A stretch of 64,000 nucleotides of DNA from Takakia lepidozioides (GCA_030704615.1 CM060734.1:30380001-30444000), one strand, 5' to 3'. Counted from the stretch's first letter, positions 8,960 through 52,883 are shown. Translations and numbers: made by a program. The notes: generated by a model from the letters alone, not told the origin.

Positions 8960-8971
8960 GGTAGGGGTGTA
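8960..8971 (+). promoter_or_regulatory. Polypurine tract of chromovirus
   Basis: GGTAGGGGTGTA immediately before the 3' LTR. Confidence 0.7.
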
Positions 8972-9695
8972 TGTCGCGGCCCTTTGCCTTGAGGGCAGGG
9001 GGTCGGGACACAAGAGGGTCTGCCCCTGTGGTGGGGGCAGTGGCAACAATAGGTACGGGGGCTGAAGTACCCTTGAGTTCCCAAGGCACTCAAGGAGGCA
9101 GAGGCGCTCACTAGGTGGAGCCCCGCACACCGGGTTGCGGTGGGGGTGGTTCCACGAGGGGTGGTGGTAGCTTAGTGGGTCTTAGTGGGGGTGGCATAGG
9201 ACTCACCATGGGGCAGAGACCTTGTGGTGGGAGTCGTGGGGACTCTTGGGACTCATCACGGTCCAATGGGGCCGTGGTGGGTGGGCCAAGACTCACTGCG
9301 ACTCATCACCGGAATCGAGGGTCTTCGTGGTGGTTCGCCATAAAATGACTGGGTTGTTTGTGAAACCCCCACGGACAGTCACAGAAGTATATATAGGGAA
9401 TAATAACCCCGAGATTGGTGCAAGCCCGTTGGTGACCAAAAACTAGTGAGTAAGCGTGTGAGCCGGAAAGCGACCAAGGTGTGGGGAGCTGTTCCGGACT
9501 GCCAACAACCAAAGGGAATTTCCACTAGGCCCAAAGTGAGCGAGGGTCTTGTGGAGGAACAAAGGGGGACCGTTATGTTCCGGTGAGTAGCCGAAGCTCC
9601 GAGTTGACCCGACGGCCAGTTTGGGAGTTAGGCGCGCGCATCAAATCGAGTATCTATGACATGAAGGGGAGCTTACCGAAGTGAGGTGCGCGACT
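8972..9695 (+). repeat. 3' LTR of chromovirus
   Basis: Begins TGTCGCGGCCC, ends GCGCGACT, followed by TSD ATTGA. Confidence 0.95.
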
Positions 9696-15595: not shown

Positions 15596-18500
15596 TGTCA
15601 AGGTATTTTACCACTAGCGTGACGTTAGCTAGGAAATAGGTAGCTTTTATATATTGATATTTGGGATTGACCCAAGTGTCAATCCAGGGACCAATGTATG
15701 TTTGGGCACCTGGCGTGGTTATCTTCATGGCAGATCACGGTGGGCTCATCTTTCTTGAGTTGAGCCTCACCGCGTCTAGCTATGGCGCCGTAGTGTGGAT
15801 TCCCCATGGCGTGGGGTGCACTTGACTCGACTTAATATATGAGTGATGTTTTAATGTGCAAGTGTGTGAGTTTGAGAGAGCTTGTGTGCTTGTATTCTTC
15901 ATCTTTATCACTCGAGAAAGATCAGCTCGAGTCTGTGAGTGCCAGGTTCGAGCTAGTTGTAACAGTTGTGTTTTCAGATCATGAAAAGCGGTTCAGCCTA
16001 TAGTACAGGGATCCGTGCATGAGTCTATCCAAATAGAGTACGAAGGCGAACAGGTTGCAGGTTTGCAATGGATAGGGAGGCGATCAATGTTGCATAGCTC
16101 AACGCTATGGCGACTAAGTATGCGATTCAGTGTGAAGCGGAGGAAATGTTGGCCACGAGTGGGCAAACTGTGGTCGTCTTCTTCAGCTGCAGGCTGAGTT
16201 GAGGAGTTGTAGAAATGTGGGCGGTGCGCGGGGAAGCTACTGCAGCACAACCCGTCATTGCATCGCAGGTTGGCAACGGTATGAGGGCCATTGGTTGCTG
16301 ACCCAAAAGCACTCGCTTTGGGGCCCACGAACTGCAGGTATGATCATGGTGTGGAAGAGTAGAAGTCCAAGCGAGAGGGCTGGTTCTTCTTTTGTGCAAA
16401 TCAGTGCACTTGTGAAGCATTTGCCTGAGTTGGAAGTTTCAATCTGAAACTCTAGCACTAAGGCTCTTGGAGTGGCAAGAGTGGGGCTGGAAGGGTAGCA
16501 ACAAGGCGCCCTAGAGCCAGGGAATATGCATGAGAGATGCAAGTGCACCAAGGTGGCAAATGTGTGTATTTTTCAGCTTCATTTTGTGAGTTTCATGGAG
16601 CAAGAGAGTTTGTTGGAGAGCCAAGAGCTTGTTTGGTGAGTTGGGGGCACCTCTGGTGGGCCGTGAGAGCCCAAGAGCATGGCAGCAGGTCTGGTGGCTT
16701 CGTAGAAACCATAGTTCATCGGCAGCAGGTGCAAGAGCAAACTCTAGCTCGGGAAGAGCTCGGGAACGTGTGGGAATGCCCGAGAATGCCTTGGGAACAC
16801 GTGGGAAACTCGTGGCGAGTTCCTAGGAATGTAGGGGAACAGTGGCCGTGGTCGTGACGTGATGGGTCGTGGTGCCGGTATCACGAGATACCACGGGCCC
16901 TGGTCGTGGTCGTGGACCGTGGACTGTGGCCGTGTCGTGGTTGTGGTGCCAATGTGTGCATCTTGACAGTTTATCATGTGCAAGAGAAAGCAAAGAGGAG
17001 ATTGTTTCAGACTTTCAGCCAGAACTTGATCTATTTCCAGCGTCTTGCAAACACATTCAGGACCTGAAAGAATCACCCCCTTTGTGGCCTACGTTTTGGC
17101 AGTTTGGATTGTGTGGACAGTGCCCTGGAAACTTTATTGAAGATTATTAGAGGGGAAAAATTTAAAATCCTTGAGTGCCCGAGTTCTGCCATCCAATGCT
17201 TTGTGATTAATTAGATTTGGTTAGTGTCTACGCCAAGGCAATGGTGGATGTTTTTCCACTGAGCATCTCTATGTTGACTGTCCTGTTCTGTGCTGCACTT
17301 ATTCTAGGCCTTGCAAAATTTCAAAGGAAATGGTTCTGACTTTACCATGCTACAGGGATGCCACGAACCCAGGCCGTGGTAGTGGCCGTTGAGGGGTCGT
17401 GGCACGAGGGTATCACGGGAGGCGCTTGGGGCCGGTTCGTGCCTATGGCAGGCCGTGGCCGGGAAGCATGGGAAGTCGTGGCGGTTAGAGCCACGGAAGG
17501 CCGCGAACAGGCAGAGTGAAAAAAAATAAAAAAAAATAAAAAAAAACTTTTTTCACTCATTTCGTGGGACCTAGATGGGGAGGCTGGGGTCTGAAAGACA
17601 ACGGTTTTGAGCTAGCTGATCCGACAAAAAAGTCGGAATTGCCTCCCCGTTGCGTTTTGAGAAAGGGGGTTACCTCCCTGCAGGTAATCTTTTTGGGTTT
17701 TCAGCCCAATTCTTAACTATGGGGGAGACCAGCCTGCAGGTAATTCCTTTGGACAGAATGTTGTTGGGGCCTATATGTACCTCGACCCTGTGGAGGCTTG
17801 CATGGGGCCTTGGAGGCCAAGTTTCATGAGCTCGTGAAGGGCGGTTTGAGGGGTGTCTACATGATGCTCTCATGGTCATGCAAGTGAGAGAAGAGAGGAA
17901 AAAAAAAGGTGTTGGGATGAGAGCGTGCTGGGGATAGGCATTGCTTTAGCTTCCCTTCCTCATAGCTTTCCACCTTCTCTGTAGGCCGAGACCTTTCCGT
18001 AGGTGGAGGCAAGAGTCAGTCCGGGTTTTGGGCTGGGTTGCAGGAGCGACACTGTGGAGAGATTTTTGGTGTGGGGGAGTTGTTGTCTTGATTTCTTGTG
18101 TTTGGATCCCCTCCACACCTGCATGCTTGATTGTGCGCCATGCTAGTTTTGTGTGGGCGCTTGTTTTTATAGGTGGTTGACTCAGGCTTGATCGCCGATC
18201 CGACTCTAGAGCATGCTGTCGATGGTGAGGCTGGGTTGATGACCAGTCAGACCATCTTTGTTTCTCCTGTGGTGAGGTTGGAAGTTATGACCAGCCAACC
18301 ATAGGAGTGCCTGCGGTGGATGCAGGTGCAGGTGTAGACTATGTTAGGAACCTAGTATTCCAAACCATAAGCCGCATCAAGTTCTCTACCCGGTTACCTT
18401 GTGGAGAAGGGGTTAGGGACATGTTCATGACCGGTTGAGTGTTAGTTTGTCAACACGGAGGTGCCACTAGTTGCTGGGAAAAGTGACGGTACGAGCATTA

Positions 18501-20298
18501 GCGATACTAGCGGGTACACGAGACGAGGTGTGCGGTTTAGGCCACCTTCACCTCCTGTGTCTTCTACGGAAGGTTCTGATTCGGATTGTGAATTAGGAGG
18601 ACTCACACTGGCGGTGCAAGTTATTTCCTTGCCATTGTTGTGGGACACAATGGAGGAGATGTATGGAGCTACCAAGGGGGCCATGATGGTACTCTGGGGC
18701 GGTGGGTTACCATCGAGTTGGATGATTTCATTCAAGAGTTTGATAGTTGGTGTGACTTGTAGCAAATGCGCAATCCACAACTGTTTACGCCTTTCATGGC
18801 ATGGAAGGGGTTGTTTCAGCACCTTGAGGGGTCGCCCATGGATGATTACCATGAGTTTAGGCGAGGGCATGATGTTGAGATCGAGGAGTGGAGGATGTAC
18901 TGGGCACCCGACTATGTCTCCATCATTAGAGGCACTAGAGGGACAAGGGCCCCGACACAACTTTACACAGCCCGTCACAGTCTATCACAGCCAGACACAG
19001 TCTGACACAGCCCGACACAACTTTACACAGCCAGTCACAGCTCGGCACAGCTTGACACAGCCTGTCACAGTGTACATAGTGAACAATTATCATTGACAGG
19101 GAACGACTATGTGGGAACGCCATCTACAGAGGGAACATGTTACTTCAGGGGTGACGGTTAGTTAGTTAGGTGGCTAGAACAGCTTGCGGGTAGATTAGGC
19201 AGGGCGGCAACAGGAAGAGGATCACTTCTTGAGGAGGGCGACTTGTTCAGGAAAAGGGAGACGTAACGGAGAGCGGAAACAGTGAAGAGGAGATGATGAC
19301 TTGATTGAGGCTTAATTCATGCAAGCTGTAAAATTATACAATAGGGTAGATTAGGGACACCATGGCATAGGCATGATACATGATTAATCTTAATCCGATA
19401 CTGAATCGATACAAACATACTTTGTAGAGAGACATGAGAGAAGCTATGGAATGAATGCATGATTAATTGAAACATAGTAGATACTGAAGCAATCTGATGC
19501 TTCAGTATATATGGTAAGGTAAATTGATAACATGAAGGCAAGAACGAATACAAATAGGAAGCACAACCATGATTCACTAGCTGTAGGTCATGACTGATTG
19601 TTCTGAGCGGGCTGAGTGCTTAGAGATATCCAATTCTTCTATCTTGGAGTTTCCACCTCGGATAGCGAAGGGATGGGTGAGTAAAAGCTGCTTGACAGAG
19701 GCCCAGTGTTATGGTTTACATCCTGAGTTGTGCCCAGGCCAGTTCCAAGGGAACAGTGGTGGCCGGGGGTGAGGTGGAGCAGCCCAGAAAGGACGAGGTG
19801 GCTAGGCACGAGGTGCAGGCCTGCAAGGGCAAGCTCAACATGGCCAGGGACGTGGAGGTCAGGATGTTGACCAAGGCATGGCCAACCGGCTTCAGCAGCT
19901 AGAGCAGAGGCTTGCTGTCATGGCAATAGCTCAGGTGGTACCAGCTCCAAGGCCTGATGGTCCACCTCCTGCTCTTGAGGGAGGAGACATGGGAAGCATG
20001 GGATTTATGTGCGGGGCAGCACTACCACTAGTGCAGGTGGAGTCTGCTGCTGTTCCTCAGTCATTAACATTGGCGGAGAGAGTGTCGACGCCATCCATGG
20101 CACCCAGTTCTCGTCCGACTGTTATCGAGGCGGAGGTTACTATGCCATTAGGGAGAGCTACATGAGTGGCACCACTACCTAGTAGTGCCAAGGCTATGAT
20201 AGCTAGTGTGCTGCTGGGGGCGGCCACATCTGTGTGCCAGGCTCCATTGTTCTTGGCTACCATGATTGTGACGCCGGGGGTAAGACCAGCTGAAGTGT
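15596..20298 (+). mobile_element. Split-repeat family, copy c (5' part: A1 15596-15910, long leader, gag fragments), inserted in copy a just upstream of its gag
   Basis: Starts TGTCAAGG right after ..TCTCTACCC of copy a; leader homologous to 13123-15595; gag homologous to copy b (18440-18950, 19698-20298); 3' end lost. Confidence 0.75.
18951..19697 (-). mobile_element. Probable divergent relative (copy d), 5' fragment inserted antisense in gag of copy c
   Basis: Minus strand begins TGTCAAGCAGCTTTTAC (cf. TGTCAAGTTATTTTAC) and carries the same CACAGCC repeat as copy b in the same relative orientation (18951-19070). Confidence 0.55.
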
Positions 20299-20769
20299 GC
20301 CATTGCACAGGTGTTGCACACATATTTAAGCACATGTGGGAAAAAATGAAGCTTGAGCCACATCCGTTTGATGGGTGCAATGGCATGAGAGGATTTTCTT
20401 TCACATTAATAAACAAAAATTGGTTGATAGGGTGAACGCGTCCTTGAGGGGGCAAATGATTTTGTTTGGGTTTGAAACTTTGCATACGTGACGTTGTGCA
20501 CATATGTCCGTATGTTCAGGACTTTGTCCCTCCCTTCCCGGTCCTTTCTCTTGGCACCCCATCCGAAAACAACCCAAGTACATCAGGTGGGAGCCGTGGG
20601 AGAGACGCTGCCCCCATGGTACCGGATGATGATGACGATGACAGTGACAGTGACAGTGACAGTGACAACAACAATAAGCATGGAATTAACCAGGAGGATG
20701 TGCAAGCCATGGAGGATCTCTTAATGCATCATGTGGGCGCTGATGCATCCCATGGAGAGGGAACCCGGC

Positions 20770-21355
20770 TGTCGTGCGCATACATATCGCTACACAACTA
20801 CATCGCTGTCCAAAACCACACAACACATGTGCATACCACACACTAGTATACCACTAGTCTACCACTAGTCCAGCCACTAGTCCAACCACTAGGCTACAAC
20901 TAGTCAGTCACTAGGCTGCCACTACGCTGCCCACTATGGCAGTCACTAGTCCACACAATCGAGCCCCGCAGCTTCAGCCATAGCTAGGCGCGGTGAGGCT
21001 CAACTCGAGAAAGATGAGCCTCCCGCGCTTGCCGTGAAGATAACCACTCCAGGGCCTAAATCTGCCTTGACCCCTGGATTGACACTTGGGCCAATCCCAA
21101 ATGTCAATATGTAAAAGCTAGCTATTTCCTAGTTAGTTTCACACTAGTGGTAAAATAACTTGACAGCTGTCGTGCGCATACATATCGCTACACAACTACA
21201 TCGCTGTCCAAAACCACACAACACATGTGCACACCACACACTAGTATACCACTAGTCCACCACTAGTCCAGCCACTAGTCCAACCACTAGGCTACAACTA
21301 GTCAGTCACTAGGCTGCCACTATGTTGCCCACTATGACAGTCACTAGTCCACACA
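20770..21355 (-). repeat. B1-A2-B2 terminal repeat block of copy b
   Basis: Two 188-bp B repeats flank a 189-bp A repeat; palindrome GACAGCTGTC at 21162-21171. Confidence 0.9.
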
Positions 21356-21370
21356 ATCGCCCCCCTAGCT
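21356..21370 (-). promoter_or_regulatory. Polypurine tract of copy b
   Basis: AGCTAGGGGGGCGAT directly before TGTG of B1; same motif at 39528-39542 in copy a. Confidence 0.75.
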
Positions 21371-21615: not shown

Positions 21616-21925
21616 CTATCCCAAGCAGTGTGGACACAACCAATCTCCGTCAGGAACCTTCTCAAGAGGTGGTGTCAAGCATCCCATATGCCAACCCCTT
21701 GAGCATCGATCACACACCAGCATGGTGGCTGCCCCTTTGGCAGACCCACTGAGCATGCACCTCAAACCTGCAGGTACCACTGCCAAGTGTCAACTCTGCC
21801 ATCGACATTGGGAAGGTGACATGGCGCACAATTACGTACATGGTCCTTCCAAGTCATGCCATCCCGACCCTCTAAGATCAGGACCCCTGAGGGCAACACC
21901 TCTCGAACCCTCAGAATAACACGCC
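21616..21925 (-). pseudogene. Integrase C-terminal region with PHD finger (copy b)
   Basis: RVILRVREVLPSGVLILEGRDG..; CMLSGSAKGAATMLVCDRCSRGWHMGCLTPPLEKVPDGDWLCPHC at 21759-21625. Confidence 0.85.
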
Positions 21926-23382
21926 TTGACCAAACCCGGTCGATGCACAACCTGAAAGTCATACTCCTGGAGTATAAGTGCCCACCGTGCAAGCTTCCCC
22001 GTAAGCTTGTCTGACTCCATCAACCACTTGAGTGGCTGGTGATCCGTGACAAGGGTGAAAAGATTGCCGTATAGATAGCACCTGAAGTGTGCCACGACCC
22101 ACACTGCAGCTAAGCACTCTCCCTCATATGAGCTGTACTTAGCCTCTGCAGCGTTGTTCGAGCGGCTAGCATAAGCCACTACGAACTCTCTTCCCTCATC
22201 ATCCACCTGTGTGAGCACCGCTCCAAGCCCCAGCATGCTCCAATCCATACGCAGCTGAAAGGGACGCCCCCTGATAGGTCGTCTCAGGATAGGCGCCGAG
22301 GTCAACCTCGCCTTGAGCTCTTGAAAAGCTCGTTCCTGCTCATCTTCCCACTGCCACTCCTGGTCCACCTTGGTCAGCTTGGTTAGAGCCTTTGCAATGG
22401 TACTAAATCCCTTGACAAACCGTCTATAATAGTTTGCCAACCCCATGAAAGCTCGAACTCGGCTCACATCCGTGGGGCGTGGAATTTGTGCAATGGCCTC
22501 TACCTTAGTCTGCTGTACCCCCAATCCTCCAGGATATATCATGTGACCCAGATACTCAATCTGGTTGTGGAAAAACTTGCACTTCCCCGGATGCAACTTC
22601 AATCCGTGCGCTCTCAAGCGCTCCAATACCACCTGAAGGTATCTCTCATGCTCCTCCATCGTAACACTAAAGATGATGATGTCATCTATGTAGCACCGAG
22701 CAAAGTCCACCCCTGCTAGAATCCTATCCATGACTCTCTGAAACACTGCAGGAGCATTCTTAAGCCCAAATGGTAAGAACCGCCACTGATATAGGCAATC
22801 CTTGCCGTGCTCATTGATCCCCCAGAATGCCGTCTTCTGCTTGTCCGCCTCCTTGATTGGCAACTAGTGATATCTGGATCGTAAATCCAAAGTGCTAAAG
22901 GCCTTAGCATGCCCGATGGCATCAAAGATTTCCTCTGGTGTTGGCATGGCATACTTATCGGACTTGGTCTGACGATTTACAGGCCGGTAATCACCGCACA
23001 TACGTCTCTCCGTCCAATTGCCATAGACATCCTTCTTGGCTGGCATCACTGTGGCTGAAGCATACTCTCCACCAGAGAGCTCCACCAAACCTGCCTCCCA
23101 GAGATCTTGAGTCCTCATCTGAATCAAAGACCTCTCCATGTCACTGTATCTATAGGGTCTCCAAAAGATTGGCGTGTCAGTGGCCAACTCAATACGGATC
23201 TCTTGACCCTTCAGTGCTCCCAAGTCCTTCAAACTGAAGGCAAAGCAATTCCTATAAGCCCTTAGGAACCGCCGTATACGTCGTCTCTCTCCTCCGGTGA
23301 CAATGGGTCCAATGTCAGGCTCCCAATTGTCCTCCGTAACTGCAACCTTAAGTCCAGTGGGCTTAGAGGCGTCCAGTGGTTG
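21926..23382 (-). pseudogene. pol: Reverse transcriptase and RNase H of copy b
   Basis: RMCGDYRPVN, LDLRSRYH*, LPFGLKNAP, CYIDDIII, DWSMLGLGAVL, YEGECLAAVW, VTDHQPL; one in-frame TAG at 22864-22866. Confidence 0.95.
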
Positions 23383-25158
23383 CTATGTTGCAACCTCTTG
23401 AGCAGTACTCCCTACCTGCTCAGTCAATGACAAGGGCTCATCCTGCCCCATCATCTCATCCTTGAGGACCTCCTCAACCCGAGAAGAATCCCCAACCTCA
23501 TCCATCACAGCCGCCTTGGCTGCCAACTCCCTCTGAACCTCGAGCACCTCCCACGTGTGCCATGGATGCATGCACCCCGTGGTCCTCACATGCTCGCCCC
23601 CACTCACTGCTTGTACAGTCTCGGTAGGCAGAGAGACCATTGAGGGAAGTGTACTCCGCACTCTGTGTTGCTCAGCCAGAGCCAAGCTGATAATCCAGGT
23701 CAAGCAATTGAGATCCATTGCTTGCCCCAACACTTGACGACGGGATGCCTCAGAAAGAGACGACACCGCCGTGGTACCAGTGGTAAAACCCATTGCCCGC
23801 TCACGCTCATCAGCATTAGGCTCCACTAACTGCTGCAACTGAGCATCCCACAGGAGGCCAGGTCCACTATCCGGGAAAGCATGCGATCCTGGGAAGCTGA
23901 GCAGTGTAGGTAATGCTGCTCGTGGTTGACCCACCTTGTTGACCACTGCCAAAGGCGAACGGTCATCATGTCTCACACGCTGAGACTGCCTCCCTGTGTC
24001 CAGAATGTTATCCACTGTGAGATGTGCTGGCCGCTGCACCCCATCAAATGCACGCTTGAGCAGTGCGGGTGGCATCAAGTTAGTCCACCATAGTTGTGGA
24101 CGATGAGCCCGTGACCCCACTGTAGCTGCATCTAGCAACACTGCTGACCCAAGCCACGACCGGACTTGATGCACACTGGCCATCACCCTGGCCCAAGAAT
24201 CGCCCATCAGTGGCACATTCTCCAAGATGTATGCTGGAGATACAGCTTGATGAAGCTGCAAGTGGCGCAAAACCCGCACCATCTCCCAAAACAGACCCGA
24301 CCTCGAGTCTCGCAATCCATTGCCATGCCTAGCTGATGAATGCCCTTGGCAGGGCCAACCTGCCACTACCAGATCAATGGAACCAACCCGCTCCAAATCC
24401 TGCGCCCCCGGCAACGAAATGTTTGCTGGCAAGGCCTGCTGATATCCACGAATTGCAGACACCGACAACAACTCCGGGTACCGCTGCACCAACTGAGCAA
24501 CATGGCGAAGTGAAACGCGTCGTGTAGTCTCATCCTTCTCCACATACAGGTAACGCCGAACTCGTACACCTGCTTGTAACACAGCAGCCAATCCGGTGCT
24601 GATCCCGCCAAACAAGTCTAGAAGACAAATGTCTTCATCCGGATACTGCCACACAATAGGTGTGGTGTCCAATGGAGACAATTGAGGTGGTCCTGGTGCA
24701 ATCCCCACACTCTCCTCCTCTCCTGACGGTACAAAAGCCTCCACCCAGGCTTGTTGCACCCGTCGATCAGCATCCCGCTGCAAATCCTTGCTCGTGCCCA
24801 ACAATGGAGTCTGAGCAACCATGGTAGGCAACTCCGCCATACCATACATATCATCCTGCTCTCCCGGAGGTGGTACATCCTCTGAATGAGCATTGCCCTC
24901 AAGCAACTCTCTAGGCCAACTCACTGCCGCTGTGAATGCTGCTAGTGTCGGCATCTTGCCTCGCTGGGCAACCGCAACTCCTCCTATGAACGTCACAGGG
25001 AGCTGCACATGCCGGCCCTCCCCTGACTGCCATGCAGGCCTATAGGAAGCTGACTCCTCCCAAAAATCTAGGGTGAAGCCCATGGGGTACAACACTGCCC
25101 CACCAACCAGGACATCGTATGAGACTGCGTCTGTCACAATGGCCTTGGCTCGCATCAC
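23383..25158 (-). CDS. Polyprotein segment: protease C-terminus plus DNMT3-like DNA (cytosine-5) methyltransferase domain (~24630-23680)
   Basis: Motif I LDLFGGISTG, II YVEKD, IV DLVVAGWPCQGHS, V SGLFWEMVRVL, VI YILENV, VIII DAATVGSRAHRPQLWWTNL, IX ERERAMGF..GTT, X RRQVLGQAM. Same frame as RT and RH. Confidence 0.93.
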   Translation of the reverse strand: MMRAKAIVTDAVSYDVLVGGAVLYPMGFTLDFWEESASYRPAWQSGEGRHVQLPVTFIGGVAVAQRGKMPTLAAFTAAVSWPRELLEGNAHSEDVPPPGEQDDMYGMAELPTMVAQTPLLGTSKDLQRDADRRVQQAWVEAFVPSGEEESVGIAPGPPQLSPLDTTPIVWQYPDEDICLLDLFGGISTGLAAVLQAGVRVRRYLYVEKDETTRRVSLRHVAQLVQRYPELLSVSAIRGYQQALPANISLPGAQDLERVGSIDLVVAGWPCQGHSSARHGNGLRDSRSGLFWEMVRVLRHLQLHQAVSPAYILENVPLMGDSWARVMASVHQVRSWLGSAVLLDAATVGSRAHRPQLWWTNLMPPALLKRAFDGVQRPAHLTVDNILDTGRQSQRVRHDDRSPLAVVNKVGQPRAALPTLLSFPGSHAFPDSGPGLLWDAQLQQLVEPNADERERAMGFTTGTTAVSSLSEASRRQVLGQAMDLNCLTWIISLALAEQHRVRSTLPSMVSLPTETVQAVSGGEHVRTTGCMHPWHTWEVLEVQRELAAKAAVMDEVGDSSRVEEVLKDEMMGQDEPLSLTEQVGSTAQEVAT

Positions 25159-25775
25159 TGAGCCATCTTAGGGTGATCCGGCCGTAGTCTGATAGCCAAC
25201 TTACGCCGTGTCATGCCCCGAGCCTGCTCCGATCCTCCCAGAGATGTCTGTATCTGGAACGGACAAGGCTCCATATCCGCCTCCGTGAGGCCCAAGCCTG
25301 CAATAGCAGCTCTGCCCAGCATCAATGGCTGAGCTCCCGAGTCTAACAAGACCCGCAGTGGCCGGTACCTCTTGCCTGCCGGTCCACTCAAACAGAAAAT
25401 GTCATCTTGGTTGTCTAACATGACAACTCCAGGTGTCACCATGGCGCGCTCAATGGCTGGCCTAGTTGGCAGCTCCATCAACCTGGCAGCTGCAGCTTGC
25501 CATGGCGCCGCCGTGGCAGTCTTGACCCTCAAATCCAAGGATCCCTCCGGCACTACACCTCCCACTATCTCCGCAGAAGATGAAGTAACCTCCCCACTCT
25601 CACAGAGTGTAGCTGCCAGCCTGAACACCTCAGCTGGTTTTACGTCACAATCATGGTAGCCGAGAACAATGGAGCCTGGCACACAGATGTGGCCGCTCCT
25701 AGCAGCACACTCGCTGCCGTAGCCTTGGCAAACACTAGGTAGTGGTGCTACCCGTGTAGCTCTCCCCAATGGCAT
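25155..25775 (-). pseudogene. Aspartic protease region of copy b
   Basis: RVLLDSGAQPLMLG active site; continues through one frameshift into AIVTDAVSYDVLVGG. Confidence 0.85.
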
Positions 25776-27544
25776 AGTAACCTCCGCCTCGGTAAAGTCG
25801 GGCGAGAACTAGGTGCCATGGATGGCGTCGACACTGTCTCCGCCAATGTGAATGACTGAGGAAGCCTAGCCTGATGGCTTGCCTCCCCACGCTGTGGATC
25901 CAACTCCACCTCTCCACCTCGTGGCTCAGGAACTCGTGTTGCTCCTCGAGTCACGGCTGCAACAGACTCCTCCTGCACTAGTGGTAGTGCTGCTCCACAC
26001 ATGAATCCCATGCCTCCCATATCTCCTCCCTCAGGAGCTGGAGGTGGACCATCCGGCCTTAGAGCCGGTACCACCTGAGCTGTAGCCATGGCAGCGAGCC
26101 TCTGCTCTAGCTGCTGAAGCCGGTTGGCCATGCCTTGGTCAACACCTTGACCTCCGTGCCCTTGGCCATGTTGAGCTTGCCCTTGGCCTGCACCTCGTGG
26201 CTGGCCACCTCGTCCTCTCTGGGCTGCTCCACCTCGCCCCCGGCCACCATTGTTCCCTTGGAACTGGCCTGGGCGCAACTCAGGATGCAAACCATAACAC
26301 TGGGCCTCTCCATGCCCGTGCTTGCCACAATGCCCACACTGTAACTGTGCAGGCTGTGCATGTGCCGACCCTTTGCCTCCCTCTGGGCAATCCTTCTTGA
26401 CATGGGGTCCTCCACATGTCCAGCACACCACATCCGCCCGTTGTTGGCCAGCAAATGAAGGGAAGACCCCTGCATCTGAGGTCCTCTCTGCCCTTCCCTG
26501 AGCTTCACCTGAGCCCCCTTGTTGCCTTGAGCACGTTGAGGTAGTGGTTGGCTAGGAGCACCACTACCCCGTGGTGTCTCCTTAGCAAATCCCACCATGA
26601 CCACTCGTTCCTCCACCATGTTGAGCTCTATCCACTCTGCCAGCAAAAACACATTTGCTAAGGTGGAATGGGTCGCTTGTAGAAGAGTTTTATCCCGCAC
26701 CCTTCTCCTCAGCTCCTTGTCCAATATCCCATACCAGAATTGGACTGCCTGAGCTTCCGTAACCCCTTGGGTTACATTTATCAAGCGCCTCATGCGAGTG
26801 AAAGCCTCCCTCAAGCTCTCGGTCGGCTTCCGTTGGAACTCTTGTAAGCTCCGCAACTTCTCTGTCCTCACCCCTTGGTAGTTCCCTCTCAACTCTTCGA
26901 AGAACTCCACAACAGGGTTGAAGGCAGGCACGGGTGCTAGTGCTGGTGCGGTAGTGGCTTGGGTGGACGTCGTAACTACTGTACCACCAGTCCCACTGCT
27001 ACTCGCTGAAGCTGCCGGTGCAGCGGCAGGTGTAGCCACTGCCCTCGTGGCTCTAGTGCCCCTAGTGATGGAGACATAGTCGGGTGACCAGTACATCCTC
27101 CACTCCTCGATCTCAACCTCATGCACCCGCCTGAACTCATGGTAATCATCCATAGGCGGCCCTCAAGGTGCTGAAACAGCCCTTTCCATGCTATGAACGG
27201 CGTAAATAGTTGTGGATTGCGCATTTGCTGCAAATCACACCAACTATCAAACTCTTGGATAAAATCATCCAACTCAATGGTGCCCACCGCCCCAGAGTAC
27301 CTTCGTGGCCCCTTGGTAGCTCCATACATCTCCTCTTTTGTGTCCACAACAATGGCAAAGAAACAACTTGCACCGCCGGTATGAGTCCTCCTGATTCACA
27401 ATCCGAATCAGAACCTTCCGTGGAAGACACAGGAGGTGAAGGTGGCCTAAACCGCACACCTCGTCTCGTGTACCCCTTAGTATCGCTAGTGCTCAAACCG
27501 GCACTGTCCCCAGCAACTAGTGGCACCTCTGTGTTGACACTCAA
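25748..27544 (-). pseudogene. gag: gag of copy b (frameshifted) with two CCHC-type knuckles
   Basis: ELDDFIQEFDSWC, FQRKPTESLREAFTRMRRL, CWTCGGPHVKKDC and CGHCGKHGHGEAQC. Confidence 0.85.
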
Positions 27545-28282
27545 CCGGTCATGAACATGTCCCTAACCCCCTCTCCACAAGGTAACCGGGTAGAGAACCT
27601 GTTGCGGCTTATGGTTTGGAATACTAAGTTCCTAACATAGCCTACACCTGTACCTGCATCCACCGCAAGCACTCCTATGGTTGGCTGGTCATCACCTCCA
27701 ACCTCACCACAGGAGAAACAATGATGGTCTGGCTGGTCATCACCCCAGCCTCACCATCGACAGCATGCTCTAGGACTGGCCGGTGATCAAATCCGGACCA
27801 ATCACCTATAAAAACAAGCGCCCACACAAAACTAGCATGGCGCACAGTCAAGCATGCAGGTATGGAGGGGATCCAAACACAAGAAATCAGAATGACAACT
27901 CCCCCACACCAAAAACAACTCCACGGTGTTGCTCCTGCAAGGACACCCCAGCCCAAACCCGGACTGACTCTTGCCTCCACCTACGGAAAGGTCTTGGCCT
28001 AATGAGAGGGTGGAAACTACGAGGAAGAGAAGCTAAAGCAATGCCTAACCCCAACACTGCCCTCATCCCAACACTCTTGCTCTCCTCTCTTCCCTCACTT
28101 GCATGACCATGGGAATATCATGAAGATACTCCTCAAACCGCCCTCCACGAGCTTCAAAATTCGGCCTTCCAGACCACATGCCAGTCCTTAGGCAGTCCAC
28201 CAGTGCCTCCACGAGTCAGCACAGGCCGTCCACAGGTCAACACGGGCCACCACAGACCAGCACAGGCCTACACAGCTCACTG

Positions 28283-29540
28283 GTCACAGCCGTCACAGTC
28301 CCACAGGCCACTGGGCACAGCATGTCACAGCCCCTCATAGCCCATCACAGCTCGCCACAGCCTGTCACAGCCTGTCACAGCCCCGCACAGCCCCTCACAG
28401 CCCCTCACAGCCCCTCACAGCTCGCCACAGCCTCTCACAGCCCCAAAGGCCTCAGGCACGGCCTGACACAGCCCGTCACAGCCCCAAAGGCCACGGGCAC
28501 AGCCTGTCACAGCCCCTCACAGCCCGTCACAGCCCCACAGGCCACTGGGCACAGCCTGTCACAGCCCCGCACAGCCCATCACAGCCCCACAGGCCTCAGG
28601 CACGGCTATCACAGCCCCTCACAGCCCGTCACAGCCCCAAAGGCCTCAGGCACGGCCTGTCACAGCCCCTCACAGCCCATCACAGCCCCAAAGGCCATGG
28701 GCACAGCCTGTCACAGCCCCTCACAGCCCGTCACAGCCCCACAGGCCACTGGGCACAGCCTGTCACAGCCCCTCACAGCCCGTCACAGCTCGCCACAGCC
28801 CCTCACAGCCCCAAAGGCCTCAGGCACGGCCTGACACAGCCCCTCACAGCCCCAAAGGCCATGGGCACAGCCTGTCACAGCCCCTCACAGCCCGTCACAG
28901 CCCCACAGGCCATTGGGCACAACCTGTCACAGCCCCGCACAGCCCGTCACAGCCCCACAGGCCACTGGGCACAGCCTGTCACAGCCCCTCACAGCCCAAA
29001 GGCCACGGGCACAGCCTGTCACATCCGGTCACAGCCCGTCACAGCCCCACAGGCCTCAGGCACGGCCTGTCACAGCCCTCACAGCCCATCACAGCCCCAA
29101 AGGCCATGGGCATAGCCTGTCACAGCCCCACAGGCCACTGGGTACAGCCTGTCATAGCCCCGTACAGCCCGTCACAGCCCCACAGGCCACTGGGCACAGC
29201 CTGTCACAGCCCCGCACAGCCCGTCACAGCTCGCCACAGCCTGTCACAGCCCCACAGGCCTCAGGCACGGCCTGACACAGCCCCTCACAGCCCGTCACAG
29301 CCCAAAGGCCTCAGGCACAGCCCCTCACAGCCCCTCACAGCCCCAAAGGCCTCAGGCACGGCCTGTCACAGCCCCTCACAGCCCATCACAGTCCCAAAGG
29401 CCATGGGCACAGCCTGTCACAGCCCATCACAGCCCCCAAGGCCATCGGCACAGCCCATCACAGGCCCTCACAGCCCGTCACAGCCCCGAAGGCCATGGGC
29501 ACAGCCTGTCACAGCCCCTCACAGCCCCTCACAGCCCCAT
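28283..29540. repeat. Minisatellite array in the leader of copy b
   Basis: ~1.25 kb of TCACAGCC(C/T)(G/C) 10-mers interspersed with CCCACAGGCCACTGGGCACAG / CCCAAAGGCCTCAGGCACGG units. Confidence 0.95.
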
Positions 29541-31071: not shown

Positions 31072-31398
31072 TGATAAAGAAGAAGAATACAAGCACAAGC
31101 TCATGCGAGCTCACAAAGCTGAAGCATAAACTCAGGCATATATAACCTCATCACTCAAATACAAGTCAAGCCAAGTGCACCCCACGCCATGGGGAATCCA
31201 CACTACGGCGCCATAGCTAGGCGCGGTGAGGCTCAACTCGAGAAAGATGAGCCTTCCGCGCTTGCCGTGAAGATAACCAATCCAGGGCCTAAATCTGCCT
31301 TGACCCCTGGATTGACACTTGGGCCAATCCCAAATGTCAATATGTAAAAGCTAGCTATTTCCTAGCTAGTTTCACACTAGTGGTAAAATAACTTGACA

Positions 31399-34300
31399 TG
31401 GCGAAAGTGAGTTAACTTTCAACAATCTTACTTTTGCTCAATTTTCACATTCGATTTGGCATAAGTGATGTTGGGATGTCTGCCATAATGCAAACTATTG
31501 CGGACTATATCATTGCTCCATACTTGAAACCCAAGATGCCATGGTCGCGGAAAGAGGCGCGTGAAGTCTTGGACTCTGTGGGGATAGGCTATAAGATTTT
31601 TCATGCATGTCCATGTGATAAAACCCTATACTACGGAGATGATTCGCGTCTCCCCAAGTGCCCAAAGTGCAAGAAAGACCGATATCGGGATGATGTCCAA
31701 GGGAAAAAAATACCACGCAAGGTATAAGCGTCATTCCCCCTCGAATGGAAATTATTTTCTTTAATCTTCTCAATGCATGTAAAGTGTATTCCACAAAGTT
31801 TAGGGATTAGAGAGTAGTACTCATGCAAGGAGCGACGTTCAATTTTGACCATTCACGCCCAAATGAGGGAGAGGCTGCATAAAGGGAAATACATAAGGGT
31901 GTTGTATTATGTGTGCTAATGGGATGATTACATGTGGGGGACGTGGGGTATTTCATCCTAGAAAATGCATTACTTTCTGATCATCCCACGATTGAGGGCA
32001 CAATACCGAAGCCCTGAATTGGCCAGAAAGGTGTGCGGGCCACAAGATTCACAAACATGGAGGCATACTGAAGAGATGTGGCATTTTCTCTTGGAGGACC
32101 CACGACATGTCCACCTCGGCTTCTCTCGGATGGGGTCAACCCATTCTCTGTCCAGTCATGTAGTCATTCCACCTTGCCGGTGACCATGGTGAATTACAAC
32201 ATCCCTCCGTATCTTTCAATAAAAAAAAGGCCATATCATGTTGGCTGCCATTGTGCCAGATGAGTGTTCTCATTTCATGTTTATTATTTCCTTGGACTTT
32301 ACATTAAACTTCTGATCTCTGGCGCAATTCGGATGCAAGATTGATGAGTGACAGAATCATGGAGTAAGACGTGTAATTCATTTTGTAGTATAATTTGCAT
32401 ATTGGTGGAGCATTGAAACAACGATGAGAATGTTAGAAACAAGTGACAAACATGGACACGTACTTGCGACCTCTTGTTGATGAACTTAAGGAACTATGGA
32501 GGGGGGTCCCGGCATTGGATGTTTCACTTGACCCTATGGCCGGACAATCTTTTCAGATGAGAGGCATCTTGCTTTGGACAATGCATGATTATCCAGGTAT
32601 ATTATGTTCCCCATGAACAACCCGCGTACATTCACTTGTCAATGCCGGATAATATCGATGAGGATTGGGATTGATTGAAGTAGCGGCGACAGTCTTGTGC
32701 ACCGTAGTGGGGTACATGACATTATGGGCCATGCACATGACAACTTTTTGTCTTTGCTAATGTGGCGGGATATGTAGTACATGACTATTTGTTTGATTGG
32801 GGCTAAGCACCAAAGGGTACCATGCATGCTTGCATTGTGGCGATGATCTTGATGCACATAGCTCCCGCCATCTTCACAAGATGGTGTATCCCAACTACCG
32901 CAAGTTTCTTCCTATGAGCCATCGATGGAAAAGAAGAGAGAAACACTTGTTTGATGGCAAAGAGAAAGTACGTTTCCCCCCCTGTGACACCATCCGGGCA
33001 ATTTTGGGAGGACCGATGGAAGGAGGCCCATGCGGGCACGGACGGTGAAGTGGACGTGCCCGACATGAAACGACTTTCAATCTTCTACAAGTTGTCATAT
33101 TGGGCGGTACATATTCCACAAGAACACCATCAATATCCTTATGTATGCACGTGATATTGCACATTTTGTATGAATCACATTGTCACTTTCACGTCAAAAT
33201 ATTTGTGTAAGTTTTTGTGGGTGAAGTATATGTAGGACCTGAAGATTCGCCATCTTCTAGATCCCATGCATATTGAGAAGAATGTCTGTTCATCCATTTT
33301 CCGGGTTCTTCATGGCACGCCAGCAAAGAAGGGAGTGGCTGCAAAAGGAGATTTTCTTGGTGTTAGAAAGGAGCTTGAGGAGCAGGGTCACATGCGCCAT
33401 CTATGGGTCGAACAAAATGGTGTGGACCCAAAGGGTGTTGTACGGTGGAAGTATAGGCGCGCATTTTGGCAATGGACAAATGAGGAATACAAGAAAGTGA
33501 TAGCCACCATAAGTGTTGTCCGAACACCAACTGGTTATGGGTCATCCCTCTGTACGAAGTTCAGCGAAGAAGACGGGGTCTATGGTTGAAGTCTCATGAC
33601 TACCACAATCTATTGCAAGACATCTTGCCCATTGCAGTACATGGGACATTGACTCCCGAGGTTCATGAGACATTATATAGATTGGGAGGCTTGTTCCGGT
33701 GGATTTACTCCAAAGAGTTGGAGGAAGCGGATTTTCCACGCATGAAGAAGGAGGCGGCGGAGGTAATGTGTATGTTGGAGATTTCTTCCTCCTTCTTTGA
33801 CATCCAAGTACACTTGGTAGTGCACTTAGTGGAAGAGGCTTCGATTTCCGGCCCTATTCATTCTCGGTGGACGTACTTCCTTGAGCATTATATTAAGACT
33901 TTGAAAGCATTTGTAAGACAAATGGCGCACCCGAAGAGTAGCATGGCGGAGGGGTATACGTTGCAAGAAGCTATGTTCTATTGCACGGAGTACATGACAA
34001 GGGTGGATGAGGAAGCCCCTCGGGTGTGAAAGGAAGAGGAGGATGCACGAACCAATGACATCGTTTTGCCCAAAAAATCAAAGAGGGTAAAATTGCCGAC
34101 CTTGGTGATTGAGCAAGTGCATGATTTCATACTGAAGAACACCCCATCCATACACGAGTGGGAGGCAAGATACAATAACCTTGTTCAACAACGAGAGGAG
34201 GAGACGCTTGCATGGAGGCGAAACCATCCAAGGCCGGTTACTAGACGCCCTCGACGAGGAGTGGGCCGCCGGAATGTTCCTTCACAAAATTTGCCCATGG

Positions 34301-35205
34301 AATTGCAGCCTCTAAGTTCATTCCAACAGTGGTTTCAGACTTCAGTTTATGACGCCGTTGCTCAAGGAGAGGTGGTTTCAGATTTGGTGCAAGACATTGC
34401 TTGGGGCCCCTCTCAATTCGCGACCTCATACACGGCGGTTTGGGTTCACGATCGTCATTTCCGCATTTGTGCTCTTGACATGAAGCGCAAAACAACCTTT
34501 GATTCTAACTTGTGTGCCACATATATGCAAGACTCCGTGTGGGGGTGCAAGGGAGATACATGACCTGTTATGAGCAAACTTGAGTACATTGGAGAGGTTG
34601 AGAGCATACTCTAACTTTGGTATACAAAGTACCGGCCTCTTCTCTTCAAGGGAAGGTGGTTCCAGCCATATCTTGTGGGGCCCTCCGCAACACTAGTGCA
34701 AGATGATTGTGATTTCATGCATGTCAATGCAGATAGACTCAACCCTACTCATCGTCCCTCCGATGAGCCTTTTTCATGGCTTTCAGACATGGAGCAAGTT
34801 TTCTTCTTCGACGACAAAACAAGAGGAGGAAATTGGAAGATGGTTGTGCATGCTCAGCCAAGAGGAAGATGTATGTATCATGGTCTCGGATCTACATGAG
34901 GTGGGGCAATTGCGGTGGAGGGAGAGACTGGTCATAATGATGCTGATGATGGAGCTTGGGTAGAGGGGGTAGAAGAGGATGATGACGCCCCGGAGAATGC
35001 ATCCCGGACCCTATATGATGAAGCTCCAGAAGATACGGATGTTGGACAAGGAGATGAAGACACGGCCATTGACAACGAGGTGAAGGATGATTCGGAGGTG
35101 CCTTTTGAGGGCCGGACCATTTATGACGATGACTCCGATGACCAAGAAGACTTGCAGCTTGATGAGGATGAAGAAGCTCCGGATGATGATGTTCAAGTTG
35201 ATTAG
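31399..35205 (+). pseudogene. CACTA TnpD-like transposase (multi-exon, decayed); N-terminal part at ~20480-20769
   Basis: HACPCDKTLY, HYFLIIPRL, DGVNPF, DTYLRPLVDELKELW, LLWTMHDYP, LDPMHIEKNV, KSHDYHNLLQ, FFDIQVHLVVHL, SMAEGY. Confidence 0.9.
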
Positions 35206-36029: not shown

Positions 36030-39000
36030 TCCCGAAGAGTTATGGACATGATTCTGGCAGGGGTTGAGTTTGCTCGGTGCTACATAGATGACATCATCAT
36101 CTTCAGTGCTATGGTGGAGGAGCATGAGAGACACCTTCAGGTGGTATTTGAGCGCACGGATTGAAGCTACATCCAAGGAAGTGCAAGTTTTTCCACAACC
36201 AGATTGAATATCTGGGTCATATGATATATCATGGAGGATTGGGGGTACAACAGACTAAGGTAGAGGCCATTGCACAGATTCCACGCCCCACGGACGTGAG
36301 CCGAGTTCGAGTTTTCATGGGGTTGACAAACTATTATAGACGGTTTGTCAAGGGAGGCTCTAACCAAGCTTACCAAGATGGACCAGGAGTGGCAGTGGGA
36401 AGATGAGCAAGAACGAGATTTTCAAGAGTTCAAGGCGAGGTTGACCTCGGCGCCCATCTTGAGACGACCTATCAGGGGGCGTTCTTTTCAGCTCCATACG
36501 GATTGGAGCATGCTGGGACTTGGAGCGGTGCTCACATAGGTGGATGATGAGGGAAGAGAGTTCATAATGGCTTGTGCTAGCCGCTTGAACAACGCTGCAG
36601 AAGCTAAGTATAGCTCACATGAGGGAGAGTGCTTAGCTGCAGTGTGGGCCGTGACACACTTCAGGTGCTATCTGTACGGCAATCTCTTCACCCTTGTCAC
36701 GGATCACCAGCCACTCAAGTGGTTGATGGAGTCAGACAAGCTTACGGGAAAGCTTGCATGGTGGGCATTCATACTCCAGGAGTATGACTTTCAGGTTGTG
36801 CATCGACCGAGTTTGGTCAATGGGGATGCAGATGGATTGAGTCGCAATCCATGCACGAGCTAGCAGGATGACATTGGAGCTCGGTGGCATGGTGAGACGG
36901 ACGAGGAGATGGTGTCGGGGTGGCACACATTTGCATTTTTGTGTATCTTAGCATCGGGAGGTCAGGTTGGACCTACAACGGGGATGACTGTAGACGGAGT
37001 GTCTGAGGACCCTGATGCTAGTGATGAGCCAGGTGGTGCCAGAGATATACATGAGGATTCGGCTGTGTTGGACTACCTTGGGGGGGGGTCACTTCCCGTA
37101 TTTTCAAAACCACGTGAGAACAAATATAGGGTGTAGTTTATTTTTTTGAGGTAAATTAAAAAAAAAAATTACTTTGAAAATATGGTAGCACAATATCCTT
37201 TCACCCAGTTTTTAAAAAAAATATGTCACAAAAAATCCAAAGTTTTACTTAAAAAGTTAATGTAATAAAGGGTTTTATCTACAATAAAATATATCCATCC
37301 TGGTGAAGTTTCTCATATTTCATCCAACTCTCATCCATCAGGATGAAATCTTCTCAAAACTTCATTCATTCATCAGGCTTATTTGATTAATAAGCCTGCT
37401 CTACCCAAATCTGGGGGTTCTTCGATTATGGTGTTTTTGAATTGGTTCTCTAAAGATAAAGGCCACCTGAAGTTCAAATATGATTCCAGTGATACACAGT
37501 GGATTGATGTTGAGACCATAATCTCAACAGTGACTATGACATTTGAACCATCTCAAAACTTGTACTCTTTAGATCCAACTGATGGTGCGGCTTTGAATGA
37601 GTTTGTGGCTAATGAAAATTAAACTTTTCTTTGGGTCCGACATTTGACTTATGTATGGAATGTTGTTTGTGTACATGCTTTGAATTTTGCAATTATTTAA
37701 AAAGACAATTTAAAAAAGGGACTAATTAATTGTTGCAACAAAACATTATAAAGAAAAATAGGGTATTAGGAAACAAAGGGTTTTACAATATTACCTAAAG
37801 ATAGGGTGGAAAAAAATGCAAAATTTTAAAAATATAGCCTAGTATAAATATAAAAATACATATAGTGAACCCCCCGTGTGGACTACCTCCGCACGAGAGA
37901 TACGACAGCCACTGTGACTGCCAGGGAGAGGGATCGGATCCTGCAACAAGCCAAGAGGTTCAAGTGAGAGAGATACACTTGCTTCGAATGTGGGAGGATG
38001 GTCGGCTGAGGATCGTGCCTCACCCAACACAACGTGCACGGTTCGGCATACCCATGATGAGTTGAGGCATTTTGGAGTGCGACGCATTCACAGTCTACTG
38101 CAGGGGCAGTATTGGTGGTGTGGTATGCACACAGAGTACAACAGTTCGTGACTAGGTGCATGGTGTGTGACAGACGCGTGATTCATTCAATGCCCCTACA
38201 CCACAGTTGCATCATTTACCCATCATGGGATTGGGCTACAGGTGGAATCTTGACTTCGCAGGGCCGTTGCCACTGACGCTGGACCACCACAAATATGTGT
38301 TGGTGATGGTGGAGCACTTCTCCAAGTGGATTGAGTTGGTTTCATTGCCCGACAAGGCTAGTAAGGGGGCTGCGTATGCATTCTTGGATCGTGTTCTTAG
38401 CCAATTCGGTGCTCCAGCTCAGGTACACATGGACCAAGGGAGAGAGTTCTTGGGGGAGTTTCAAGCTTTGTTTAATAAAGCCTTGATAGACCACCGTACC
38501 ACTTCTCGGGATCATCCTGAGACCGATGGCTTGACAAAGAGAGTTGTGCAAACGGTGAAGAGGGGTTTGCGCAAATATGGCTTGAAGAAGGGACACCTAA
38601 GAGATTGGGATCTTCATGTATCTTGGTTAGCCATGGGCTACAGGTTCAGTAAGCAAACATCACTTGCCTCGTTTTCACCATATTTCCTTCTCTTTGGCCG
38701 AGAGTCGGATTTGCCAGCAAACATTTGTAGGGACACTGCTCAAGTCCTTAACATTGACGATCCGAACGTGTGGGTACGTGTATGTGATCAGCATGCAAAA
38801 TTTTTCAAGAAAGTCATGCCCATGACTTTTGAGAACCTTGCCATTGCGCAATACCGTAATACGTTGAGGTATGCCACTATACGTGGTGGAGGATATTGTC
38901 CCAGGGTTCGGAGGTTTAGCCCTGGTGACTATGTTTATTTGTAGCAGACTGCTCCTATGACCCTGGATGTCACTGCATGGCGTGTTATTCTGAGGGTTCA

Positions 39001-39542: not shown

Positions 39543-40221
39543 TGTGATGGACTAGTGGCTGCACTAGTGGTGGCTAGTGACAGTCTAGTGGTGGATTAGT
39601 GGCTGCACTAGTGGCGGACTAGTGATATAGACAAGTGTTTGATGTGCACATGTGTTGTGTGGTTTTAGACAGCGATGTAGTTGTGTAGCGATATATATGC
39701 GCACGACAGCTGTCAAGTTATTTTACCACTAGTGTGAAACTAGCTAGGAAATAATTAGTTTTGATATATTGACATTTGGGATTGATCCAAGTGTGAAATC
39801 CAGGGGCCAATGTATGTTTGGGCACCTGACGTGGTTATATCTTCATGGCAGATCGAGGTGGGCTCATCTTTCTCTAGTTGAGCCTCACCGCGTTTAGCTA
39901 TGGCGCCGTAGTGTGGATTCCCCATGGCATGGGGTGCACTTGGCTCGACTTGTATTCGAGTGATGATTTATACATGCATAAGTTTGTGTGAGACATGTGA
40001 GCTTGTATCGTTCTTGTTTATCATTGTGATGGACTAGTGGCTGCACTAGTGATGGTTAGTGGCAGCCTAGTGGTGGACTAGTAGCTGCACTAGTGGTTGC
40101 ACTATGACAGCCTAGTGGTGCACTAGTGACGGACTAGTGATAGACTAGTGTTTGGTGTGCACATGTGTTGTGTGGTTTTGGACAACGATGTAGTTGTGTA
40201 GCGATATGTATGCGCACGACA
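39543..40221 (+). repeat. B1-A2-B2 terminal repeat block of copy a
   Basis: B1 39543-39708, GC, A2 39711-40023, T, B2 40025-40221; palindrome GACAGCTGTC at 39705-39714. Confidence 0.9.

Positions 40222-43869: not shown

Positions 43870-52883
<9,014 letters not shown>

Follow-up and report, generated by a model that had tools for sequence, protein, structure and literature searches.

The stretch of DNA analysed here, a window of 64,000 nucleotides from Takakia lepidozioides (GCA_030704615.1 CM060734.1:30380001-30444000), contains a Ty3/gypsy retrotransposon that runs on the minus strand from 31398 to 20770 and carries a DNMT3-like cytosine methyltransferase domain (DNMT) between its protease (PR) and its reverse transcriptase (RT). 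The frame that encodes this domain closes at a stop codon that is conserved among the element's relatives, and the repeats at its ends are split in the layout A1-coding-B1-GC-A2-B2. The element is a decayed member of a multi-copy family that is highly repeated in its host: in run X1, possibly the source sample, 122,732 contigs align along the entire element, DNMT included, a figure that is not a copy number. Its features, and the older copy into which it is inserted, are as follows; here and below, a citation refers to the accessible part of the source.

31072 to 31398, minus strand: repeat A1, the left element end, which starts TGTC; target site GCCA at 31399-31402; the boundary at 31072 is taken from A-B joints in other copies and from the second copy in the window.
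28220 to 29540, minus strand: 5' leader array of 10-nt tandem repeats.
25748 to 27562, minus strand: Gag with Cys/His knuckles, frameshifted in the focal copy (weak PF03732 match, E 0.0024; 58-74% identity to parts of Marchantia Gag).
25155 to 25450, minus strand: aspartic protease, with its DSG at 25335-25343 and a lesion close to 25168 that shifts the frame.
23662 to 24640, minus strand: DNMT3-like C5 cytosine methyltransferase domain (catalytic Cys 24349-24351, ENV 24214-24222, motif VIII RxQ 24094-24102).
23377 to 23385, minus strand: conserved stop with readthrough-type context, TAG CAA CCA, closing the Gag-PR-DNMT frame (from linker comparison; motif from PMC2754532).
21930 to 23330, minus strand: RT and RNase H (PF00078, E 3e-25; PF17917, E 7e-35), with an internal TAG at 22864-22866.
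21920 to 21930, minus strand: breakpoint of the integrase-core deletion in the focal copy (contigs of runs X5 and X12 break off at 21923-21926).
21619 to 21760, minus strand: PHD finger at the integrase C-terminus (PF00628, E 4.5e-11).
21360 to 21366, minus strand: G-run resembling a polypurine tract, immediately 5' of repeat B1, with an equal G-run before B in related loci.
21168 to 21357, minus strand: repeat B1, terminating in GACA, identical to B2 at 191/198 positions.
21161 to 21172, no strand: B1-GC-A2 junction, the palindrome GACA-GC-TGTC, in which the element's right and left ends are joined via 2 bp.
20977 to 21165, minus strand: repeat A2, shortened in the focal copy, identical to A1 at 186/189 positions.
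20770 to 20959, minus strand: repeat B2, with the right end GACA, followed by GCCG at 20766-20769, a 3/4 match to the left target site.
13123 to 40221, plus strand: older family copy, now interrupted, that received the focal insertion (A1 at 13123, RT piece 36036-36820, integrase 38171-38941, B-A-B 39553-40221, flanks CGTA/CGTA).

The stop-to-stop frame at 23383-25167 is open over 594 amino acids, and together with 22864-23382 and 21832-22863 it forms one frame, with a single TAG between each pair. This bears out a first-pass annotation of the sequence in describing a complete, uninterrupted C5 methyltransferase domain that shares its frame with RT and RNase H. The annotation had also placed the domain between protease and RT, which stands; the protease DSG of the focal copy is in a different frame from the DNMT, owing to a lesion. 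A one-base indel at 25168 is present in 30 contigs from other copies in run X1, and other copies of the same organism show one-base indels at five gag and protease sites, so that the gag and protease breaks of the focal copy are lesions. The RT TAG at 22864-22866 is likely a lesion as well, the reading frame of relatives continuing across this site. The integrase core, found in relatives and in the second copy in the window, is missing near 21925 in the focal copy, which retains the PHD finger. The focal copy is dead.

The domain matches PF00145 in a profile hidden Markov model search (E 1.9e-10), and its closest solved-structure match is human DNMT3A (E 1e-9), followed by DNMT3B/C and then DRM2. 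An AlphaFold model built on a 23-sequence alignment (mean predicted local distance difference test, pLDDT, 75; predicted template modelling score, pTM, 0.75) matches the DNMT3A/B/C fold in Foldseek (E 1e-17, template modelling score 0.79 by target), and among the matches listed, to rank 50, there are DNMT3 structures only. The motifs FGG, GWPCQG, ENV, AHRPQ, ERAMGF and RRQVLGQ occur in the canonical, non-permuted order, a permuted enzyme of the DRM type was rejected, and the family as a whole carries motifs I, IV (PC), VI (ENV), VIII (RxR), IX and X in that order. The DNMT is intronless within the element's coding frame. The DNMT3-like motifs with intact PC and ENV that had been reported from the sequence are present, and they are kept family-wide, with the catalytic Cys in 131/137 proteins, the ENV Glu in 130/133 and the two motif VIII arginines in 120/129 and 121/128. 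The second of these arginines is Gln in the focal copy, earlier taken as a plausible deamination of a CGA codon; the 80 loci collected from metagenomes have Arg at this site in 61 cases, a stop in 8 and Gln in 5, which fits a mutable CGA, and the Gln is likely a lesion.

Eighteen pairs of loci were compared for the ratio of nonsynonymous to synonymous substitution (dN/dS) in the DNMT. The ratio is 0.14 for L026/L027 (dS 0.26), 0.11 for L027/L075 and 0.08-0.10 when the window is compared with five loci, the last at a proportion of synonymous differences (pS) of 0.71-0.74, near saturation; three other deep pairs give 0.20-0.28, and three saturated pairs were not computable. These values indicate that the domain is under purifying selection between lineages, and not neutral. 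It could instead be a host DNMT3 fragment captured once and drifting neutrally in this copy or genome, as the broken state of the focal copy and the ratios of up to 0.95 among close pairs would allow. The domain is nevertheless intronless, has an unchanged place in the elements of liverworts, Sphagnum and Klebsormidium, shows low ratios between lineages and gives a tree that matches that of RT (below). A one-off capture was thus rejected, and we assign it a negligible probability. From its best matches, and from de Mendoza et al., the domain may derive from a host DNMT3. Phage enzymes (206 records) reach 24-29% identity in the 8 entries listed, for the most part over partial lengths, and do not settle the origin; Atlas matches were PF00145 clusters only, one from a streptophyte and two from phage.

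Two homologue searches returned 95 and 65 proteins, most of these 160 being without an organism name. The named members come from Marchantia polymorpha, Calypogeia fissa, Riccia sorocarpa, three Sphagnum species, Klebsormidium nitens and the chlorophyte Monoraphidium neglectum; no Physcomitrium, fern or seed-plant name occurs among the 160, most of them nameless. A full cluster scan found 243 clusters (50% identity) with E<=1e-30, and among viral contigs 8 pattern matches included 0 relatives. Two domain orders occur: PR-DNMT-RT-RNase H (RH)-integrase (IN)-PHD in the window, the bryophytes and Klebsormidium, so that the domain is present at the same position in other copies of the family, and RT-RH-DNMT-IN-PHD in Monoraphidium and many metagenome proteins. 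The second order (P0141, P0122-P0155, L061, L070, L073, L078), in which the DNMT follows RNase H and precedes integrase, makes up a separate clade and is the commoner one among the new cluster representatives.

An RT/RH tree of 37 elements, hand-picked from the 68 with both domains, was rooted with the ordinary Ty3/gypsy element of the window (5483-7737, plus strand) as its one outgroup, and compared with a DNMT tree of 42 rows and no outgroup. Support for the clade bearing the conserved stop is 97/95 with RT and 100/97 with DNMT, and for the RT-RH-DNMT-IN clade 100/99 and 97/87; since both trees recover both clades, DNMT and RT descended together. The base of both trees is not settled, and neither includes a host DNMT3. 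The window DNMT is 44% identical to Klebsormidium P0137 over 260 amino acids, as compared with the 24-29% of the phage enzymes. Occurrence from a chlorophyte to bryophytes suggests a single ancient capture, or else horizontal spread, rather than a curiosity of Klebsormidium. Two side observations touch on this range. RT/RNase H of the window and of Marchantia P0099 are 82% identical, which is high for the moss-liverwort split and may reflect slow evolution or horizontal transfer. A 51% identical member, P0035, stands under the label of a cyanobacteria-related metagenome-assembled genome and is likely eukaryotic DNA in a bacterial bin.

The TAG at 23383-23385, noted earlier as a codon separating the frames, does not reflect decay. 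Among the 80 metagenome loci and the window, 57 have both the end of the DNMT and the start of RT in view, and 49 linkers remain after near-identical ones are dropped. TAG or TAA stands at the window's column in 33 of the 49, and in 31 of these 33 it is followed by CAR-YY (R, purine; Y, pyrimidine), in four of them by exact CAR-YYA (window, L026, L027, L075); the remaining two have TAG or TAA in place of CAR, one change away. Five linkers have a similar stop slightly upstream, in three of them TAA CAA TCA. By comparison, CAR is next in 20/789 of the lesion stops inside domains and CAR-YYA in 0/789. Among the host's other copies no different base predominates at 23383-23385, and the spacing between DNMT and RT is in frame in unbroken copies. 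The long Gag-PR-DNMT proteins P0105-P0118 (14/14) terminate 73-164 amino acids past the DNMT domain, as do five Marchantia gene models, one Calypogeia protein and one Sphagnum protein. The view that both TAGs are lesions was accordingly rejected; conserved in the family, the first is a signal. Thus the domain is in frame with Pol and not a passenger, as had been proposed, and it is family-wide and under selection, while in this clade its placing simply within the Pol polyprotein gives way to a position at the end of the Gag-PR-DNMT frame.

CAR-YYA is the readthrough signal of the tobacco mosaic virus (TMV) type, which works with UAA too and at which plants insert Tyr (PMC2754532). The column is TAC in two linkers, noted because Tyr is the residue inserted at the leaky TMV codon, and GAG in one. 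From this context we consider it likely that the stop is read through to yield RT, RNase H, integrase and PHD. One contig, from a run presumed without certainty to be RNA, crosses the stop unspliced; this contig may be DNA.

Several observations weigh against this reading. No such stop is present in 8 of the 49 linkers, from a divergent lineage, nor in Klebsormidium P0137, so that retention of the DNMT does not need bulk production. In addition, 28 of the 33 stop-bearing linkers belong to one Sphagnum-type subfamily, and the count therefore represents about five lineages. The context in that subfamily, CAA CCC ATG, is one base off the consensus, and its ATG permits reinitiation. Finally, six named gene models (P0021, P0055, P0098, P0099, P0102, P0121), known here at protein level, fuse DNMT to RT, probably through predicted introns.

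In the same element, RT to integrase might then be translated from a downstream ATG through reinitiation, or from an RNA spliced so as to skip the stop. The in-frame ATG lies 6 nt past the stop in the Sphagnum-type subfamily, the six gene models link DNMT to RT with shortened spacing, and Ogre elements splice between protease and RT. The ATG is, however, absent at that place in the window, L026, L027, L029, L075 and the L055 group; there is one stop only, with the frame preserved on either side; sense codons occupy the column in three linkers; and CAR-YY is retained across lineages whose synonymous sites are saturated. We regard reinitiation or splicing as unlikely, and readthrough as the better account of the conserved stop.

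The ends of the element are equally unusual. Its termini are TGTC...GACA, formed by the start of A and the end of B, and are not two full terminal direct long terminal repeats (LTRs); the repeats are split as A-coding-B-A-B. A 4-bp target-site duplication (TSD) occurs in all seven elements with both ends in view, matching at 4/4 positions in L034, L042, L052 and the second window copy and at 3/4 in L028, L036 and the focal copy. The junction GACA-GC-TGTC is kept in L001, L018, L042, L059 and L060, with one or two changes in L019, L027 and L052, and its conservation extends as far as a lineage whose DNMT shares 40% identity. Because the same ends meet in this conserved internal palindrome, integrase may well cut the internal junction. 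In the scheme we consider, plus-strand priming at the G-run would give cDNA with the repeat unit B-GC-A, possibly as a closed circle; cuts at both internal palindromes would yield A-coding-B, and a single cut of a closed circle would yield A-coding-B-A-B. We give this cut at the internal palindrome an even chance. Membership in DIRS was rejected on the rve integrase and the 4-bp TSDs, with no tyrosine recombinase domain among the proteins scanned.

The 16 Sphagnum-type loci with a B end comprise 11 with B alone, 4 with B-A-B and 1 with B-A cut off. A difficulty for the internal cut is that a simple two-repeat circle predicts A-B-A-coding-B to be as frequent as A-coding-B-A-B; B precedes none of the 14 upstream A repeats, and this absence of the mirror form (0/14) speaks against a symmetric circle. 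A single repeat orientation is what a route of the PAT/Ngaro type would give, in which RNA would run from inside A1 to inside B2, the B-A junction would serve as template and the ends would be joined directly, with no internal cut. A-coding-B-A-B is also the layout of DIRS elements (PMC5890265), and in L018, L019, L042 and L052 A2 meets B2 with single-base precision. That route leaves aside the G-run, which precedes B1 as a plus-strand primer precedes an LTR, and the proteins scanned lack its recombinase; B alone followed by flank, in 11 of the 16 loci, is explained directly by an internal cut, though recombination between B1 and B2 would explain it too. Regeneration of the PAT/Ngaro type thus keeps an appreciable, if smaller than even, probability beside the internal cut by integrase.

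Some further observations concern the repeats. L006, L010, L017, L031, L034, L036, L037 and L050 stop after B1, without a second A or B, and in L028, L034 and L036, which have no second A or B, both ends are in view and the target duplication is present; copies ending at B1 would lack the 3' repeat required for further copying. At 20960-20980 (minus strand) the focal A2 stops at TGG and reaches B2 via a 17-nt linker unique within the window, which together with the TGG we take to resemble the complement of a tRNA 3' end, and which would then be the remnant of a primer at a circle junction. Within repeat A a stretch starting with TGG occurs in four copies (31193-31213, minus strand; 13308, 15781 and 39899, plus strand), with a different TGG stretch at a comparable position of A in Sphagnum-type copies; it resembles a primer-binding site. 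No tRNA was found in the window.

An element of this kind is already known from an alga. KnitGypsy-Dnmt3 of Klebsormidium nitens, with DIRS-like repeats, was described as a capture specific to the K. nitens lineage (PMC5890265) and has since been termed the streptophyte Gypsy-DNMT3 (bioRxiv 10.64898/2026.05.21.726589). The present family shares with it a Gypsy RT, RNase H and rve integrase together with an intronless, non-permuted DNMT3-like domain, the PR-DNMT-RT-RH-IN order seen in Klebsormidium P0137, purifying selection, and the A-coding-B-A-B repeats, the Klebsormidium layout being known from figure legends. Since the split repeats are shared, the elements reported here are probably a land-plant branch of the published family and not an independent capture. 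They differ in their land-plant host and in that the DNMT closes the first open reading frame (ORF) at the conserved stop, whereas P0137 is continuous. A single uninterrupted Pol ORF with both DNMT and RT is thus not found in the stop-bearing clade and is found in P0137 and the 8 linkers without the stop; the stop-separated form is a variant, because both trees hold both forms in one family. In contrast to KnitGypsy-Dnmt3 as published, relatives reach bryophytes and a chlorophyte and include the second order, RT-RH-DNMT-IN-PHD. The TSDs, the palindromic junction and the PHD finger, present here, have no mention for KnitGypsy-Dnmt3 in the accessible text of PMC5890265.

Other systems resemble the family in single respects. 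SymbioDIRS-Dnmt3 also has a DNMT3-like domain in Pol and split direct repeats, but is a DIRS element with a tyrosine recombinase, as opposed to the DDE integrase and 4-bp TSDs found here (PMC5890265). In EpiLTRs/DAM-LTRs, too, one LTR element contains both a DNA methyltransferase and a chromatin reader; theirs, from Cymbomonas and Euglena, is a DNMT sister to DNMT4 with DAM and a chromodomain, ours a DNMT3-like domain with PHD (bioRxiv 10.64898/2026.05.21.726589). A stop followed by CAR-YY(A) recalls TMV-type UAG-CAR-YYA (PMC2754532) and the stop suppression of SIRE1 (PMC2829016); the stop of the SIRE1 type lies between pol and env, whereas ours follows protease and DNMT, with readthrough predicted from sequence. 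Foamy-virus integrase cleaves a palindromic LTR-LTR junction (PMC1180852); here a similar end-to-end junction is encoded inside the element, and its cutting is inferred only. Later mentions of the streptophyte case name no land plants in the accessible text (PMC12344493; bioRxiv 10.64898/2026.05.21.726589). In the literature covered, which also included the accessible parts of PMC11982613, PMC6453930, PMC9516144, 10.1101/363937, 10.1101/2021.02.12.428880, 10.1101/2021.11.30.470311 and 10.1101/2022.06.16.496473, we found no bryophyte description and no analysis of readthrough, TSDs or junction; subscription papers, Repbase entries or tree figures could hold one. What is new is the land-plant range, the signal for capsid-level expression and the structure of the ends.

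Around the element, the window holds host genes for a JMJ16-like histone demethylase (JmjN, JmjC) and a zf-4CXXC_R1 protein (45724-52880 and 57851-61522, plus strand). The JMJ16-like gene is 64% identical to Sphagnum, 59% to Physcomitrium, 58% to Riccia and 47% to an orchid (9 matches, long proteins only), in agreement with the land-plant host that had been proposed from the sequence and pointing to a plant of bryophyte grade, likely a moss. The ordinary Ty3/gypsy element used as outgroup has direct LTRs at 2678-3318 and 8971-9610, with no DNMT seen. The two ends of the older copy are assigned to one copy because of their 4-bp flank match. Within it lie more pieces of this family, namely an A repeat and parts of leader and gag (15596-20298, plus strand), and DUF4218 fragments at 31416-34560 are likely a CACTA-type DNA transposon nested in it. 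CpG values are 0.56-0.60 for the element, as compared with 0.83 for another Gypsy and 0.31 and 0.74 for two host exons, and are uninformative on self-methylation.

With these data in mind, one may propose how the family uses its methyltransferase. According to this proposal, the Gag-protease-DNMT frame would terminate at the leaky stop and RT-RNase H-integrase-PHD would be made by readthrough; as the DNMT is upstream of the stop, it would be made at the level of Gag, and the copying enzymes would reach only part of that level. The protease would release the DNMT, which would be packaged in the particle and methylate the new cDNA ahead of insertion. Copies marked in this way could be shielded from detection or editing by the host, or could have their chromatin set jointly with the PHD finger, likely a histone reader. 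As a whole, a land-plant Gypsy-DNMT3 branch whose stop is read through, and whose DNMT is packaged in bulk and methylates its own cDNA before insertion, is the best explanation we can offer and one we moderately favour. Intact family copies are fairly probably active catalytically. The target would be the element's own cDNA, a view to which we lean slightly, and most likely CG, as for the related retrotransposon DNMT3s of Symbiodinium (SymbioDIRS-Dnmt3), which methylate CG de novo in yeast (PMC5890265).

Three points count against an active, cDNA-directed enzyme: the focal copy is defective (frameshifts, RT stop, lost integrase, motif VIII Gln), dN/dS is 0.27-0.95 in five close, decayed pairs, and in the yeast test used for the Symbiodinium enzymes the Klebsormidium domain produced no methylation, a result its authors call inconclusive (PMC5890265). 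The last of these would also suit a DNMT kept for a role other than on cDNA, be it binding or methylating the packaged RNA, methylating insertion flanks or competing elements, or binding nucleic acid structurally. Bulk production at the level of Gag suits the coating of RNA, RNA methylation was raised by de Mendoza et al. for a LINE case (PMC5890265), and the ENV Asn is His in 9/134 proteins and the PC Pro is Glu in 9/137. Yet the catalytic Cys, the Glu and both arginines are kept in more than 90% of proteins, sequence and fold are nearest to the DNA-specific DNMT3, and in the second architecture the DNMT lies between RNase H and integrase, beside DNA-handling enzymes. Such a role seems rather improbable to us, and methylation of the element's own cDNA the preferable reading.

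Why a transposon should carry an enzyme that silences transposons has been an open question since 2018, the published cases being in algae without good genetics. The presence of the family in Marchantia, for which CRISPR and methylation mutants exist, opens this question to experiment in a land plant. The conserved stop, at an unusual position for a Gag/Pol boundary, predicts a methyltransferase as abundant as the capsid. The split repeats evade LTR finders, and for this reason the element's ORFs are annotated as host genes, as in several Marchantia models; such misannotated ORFs can inflate methyltransferase counts. More broadly, and only as a tentative and rather doubtful suggestion, an ancient lineage of green-plant retrotransposons, spanning chlorophytes, liverworts (Marchantia among them) and mosses, may take its own DNMT3 into each particle at capsid level, place 5-methylcytosine on its cDNA ahead of insertion, use PHD for aiming and integrate by a cut at a palindrome within its repeat, without trimming of linear ends, in a manner unlike that of LTR or DIRS elements.

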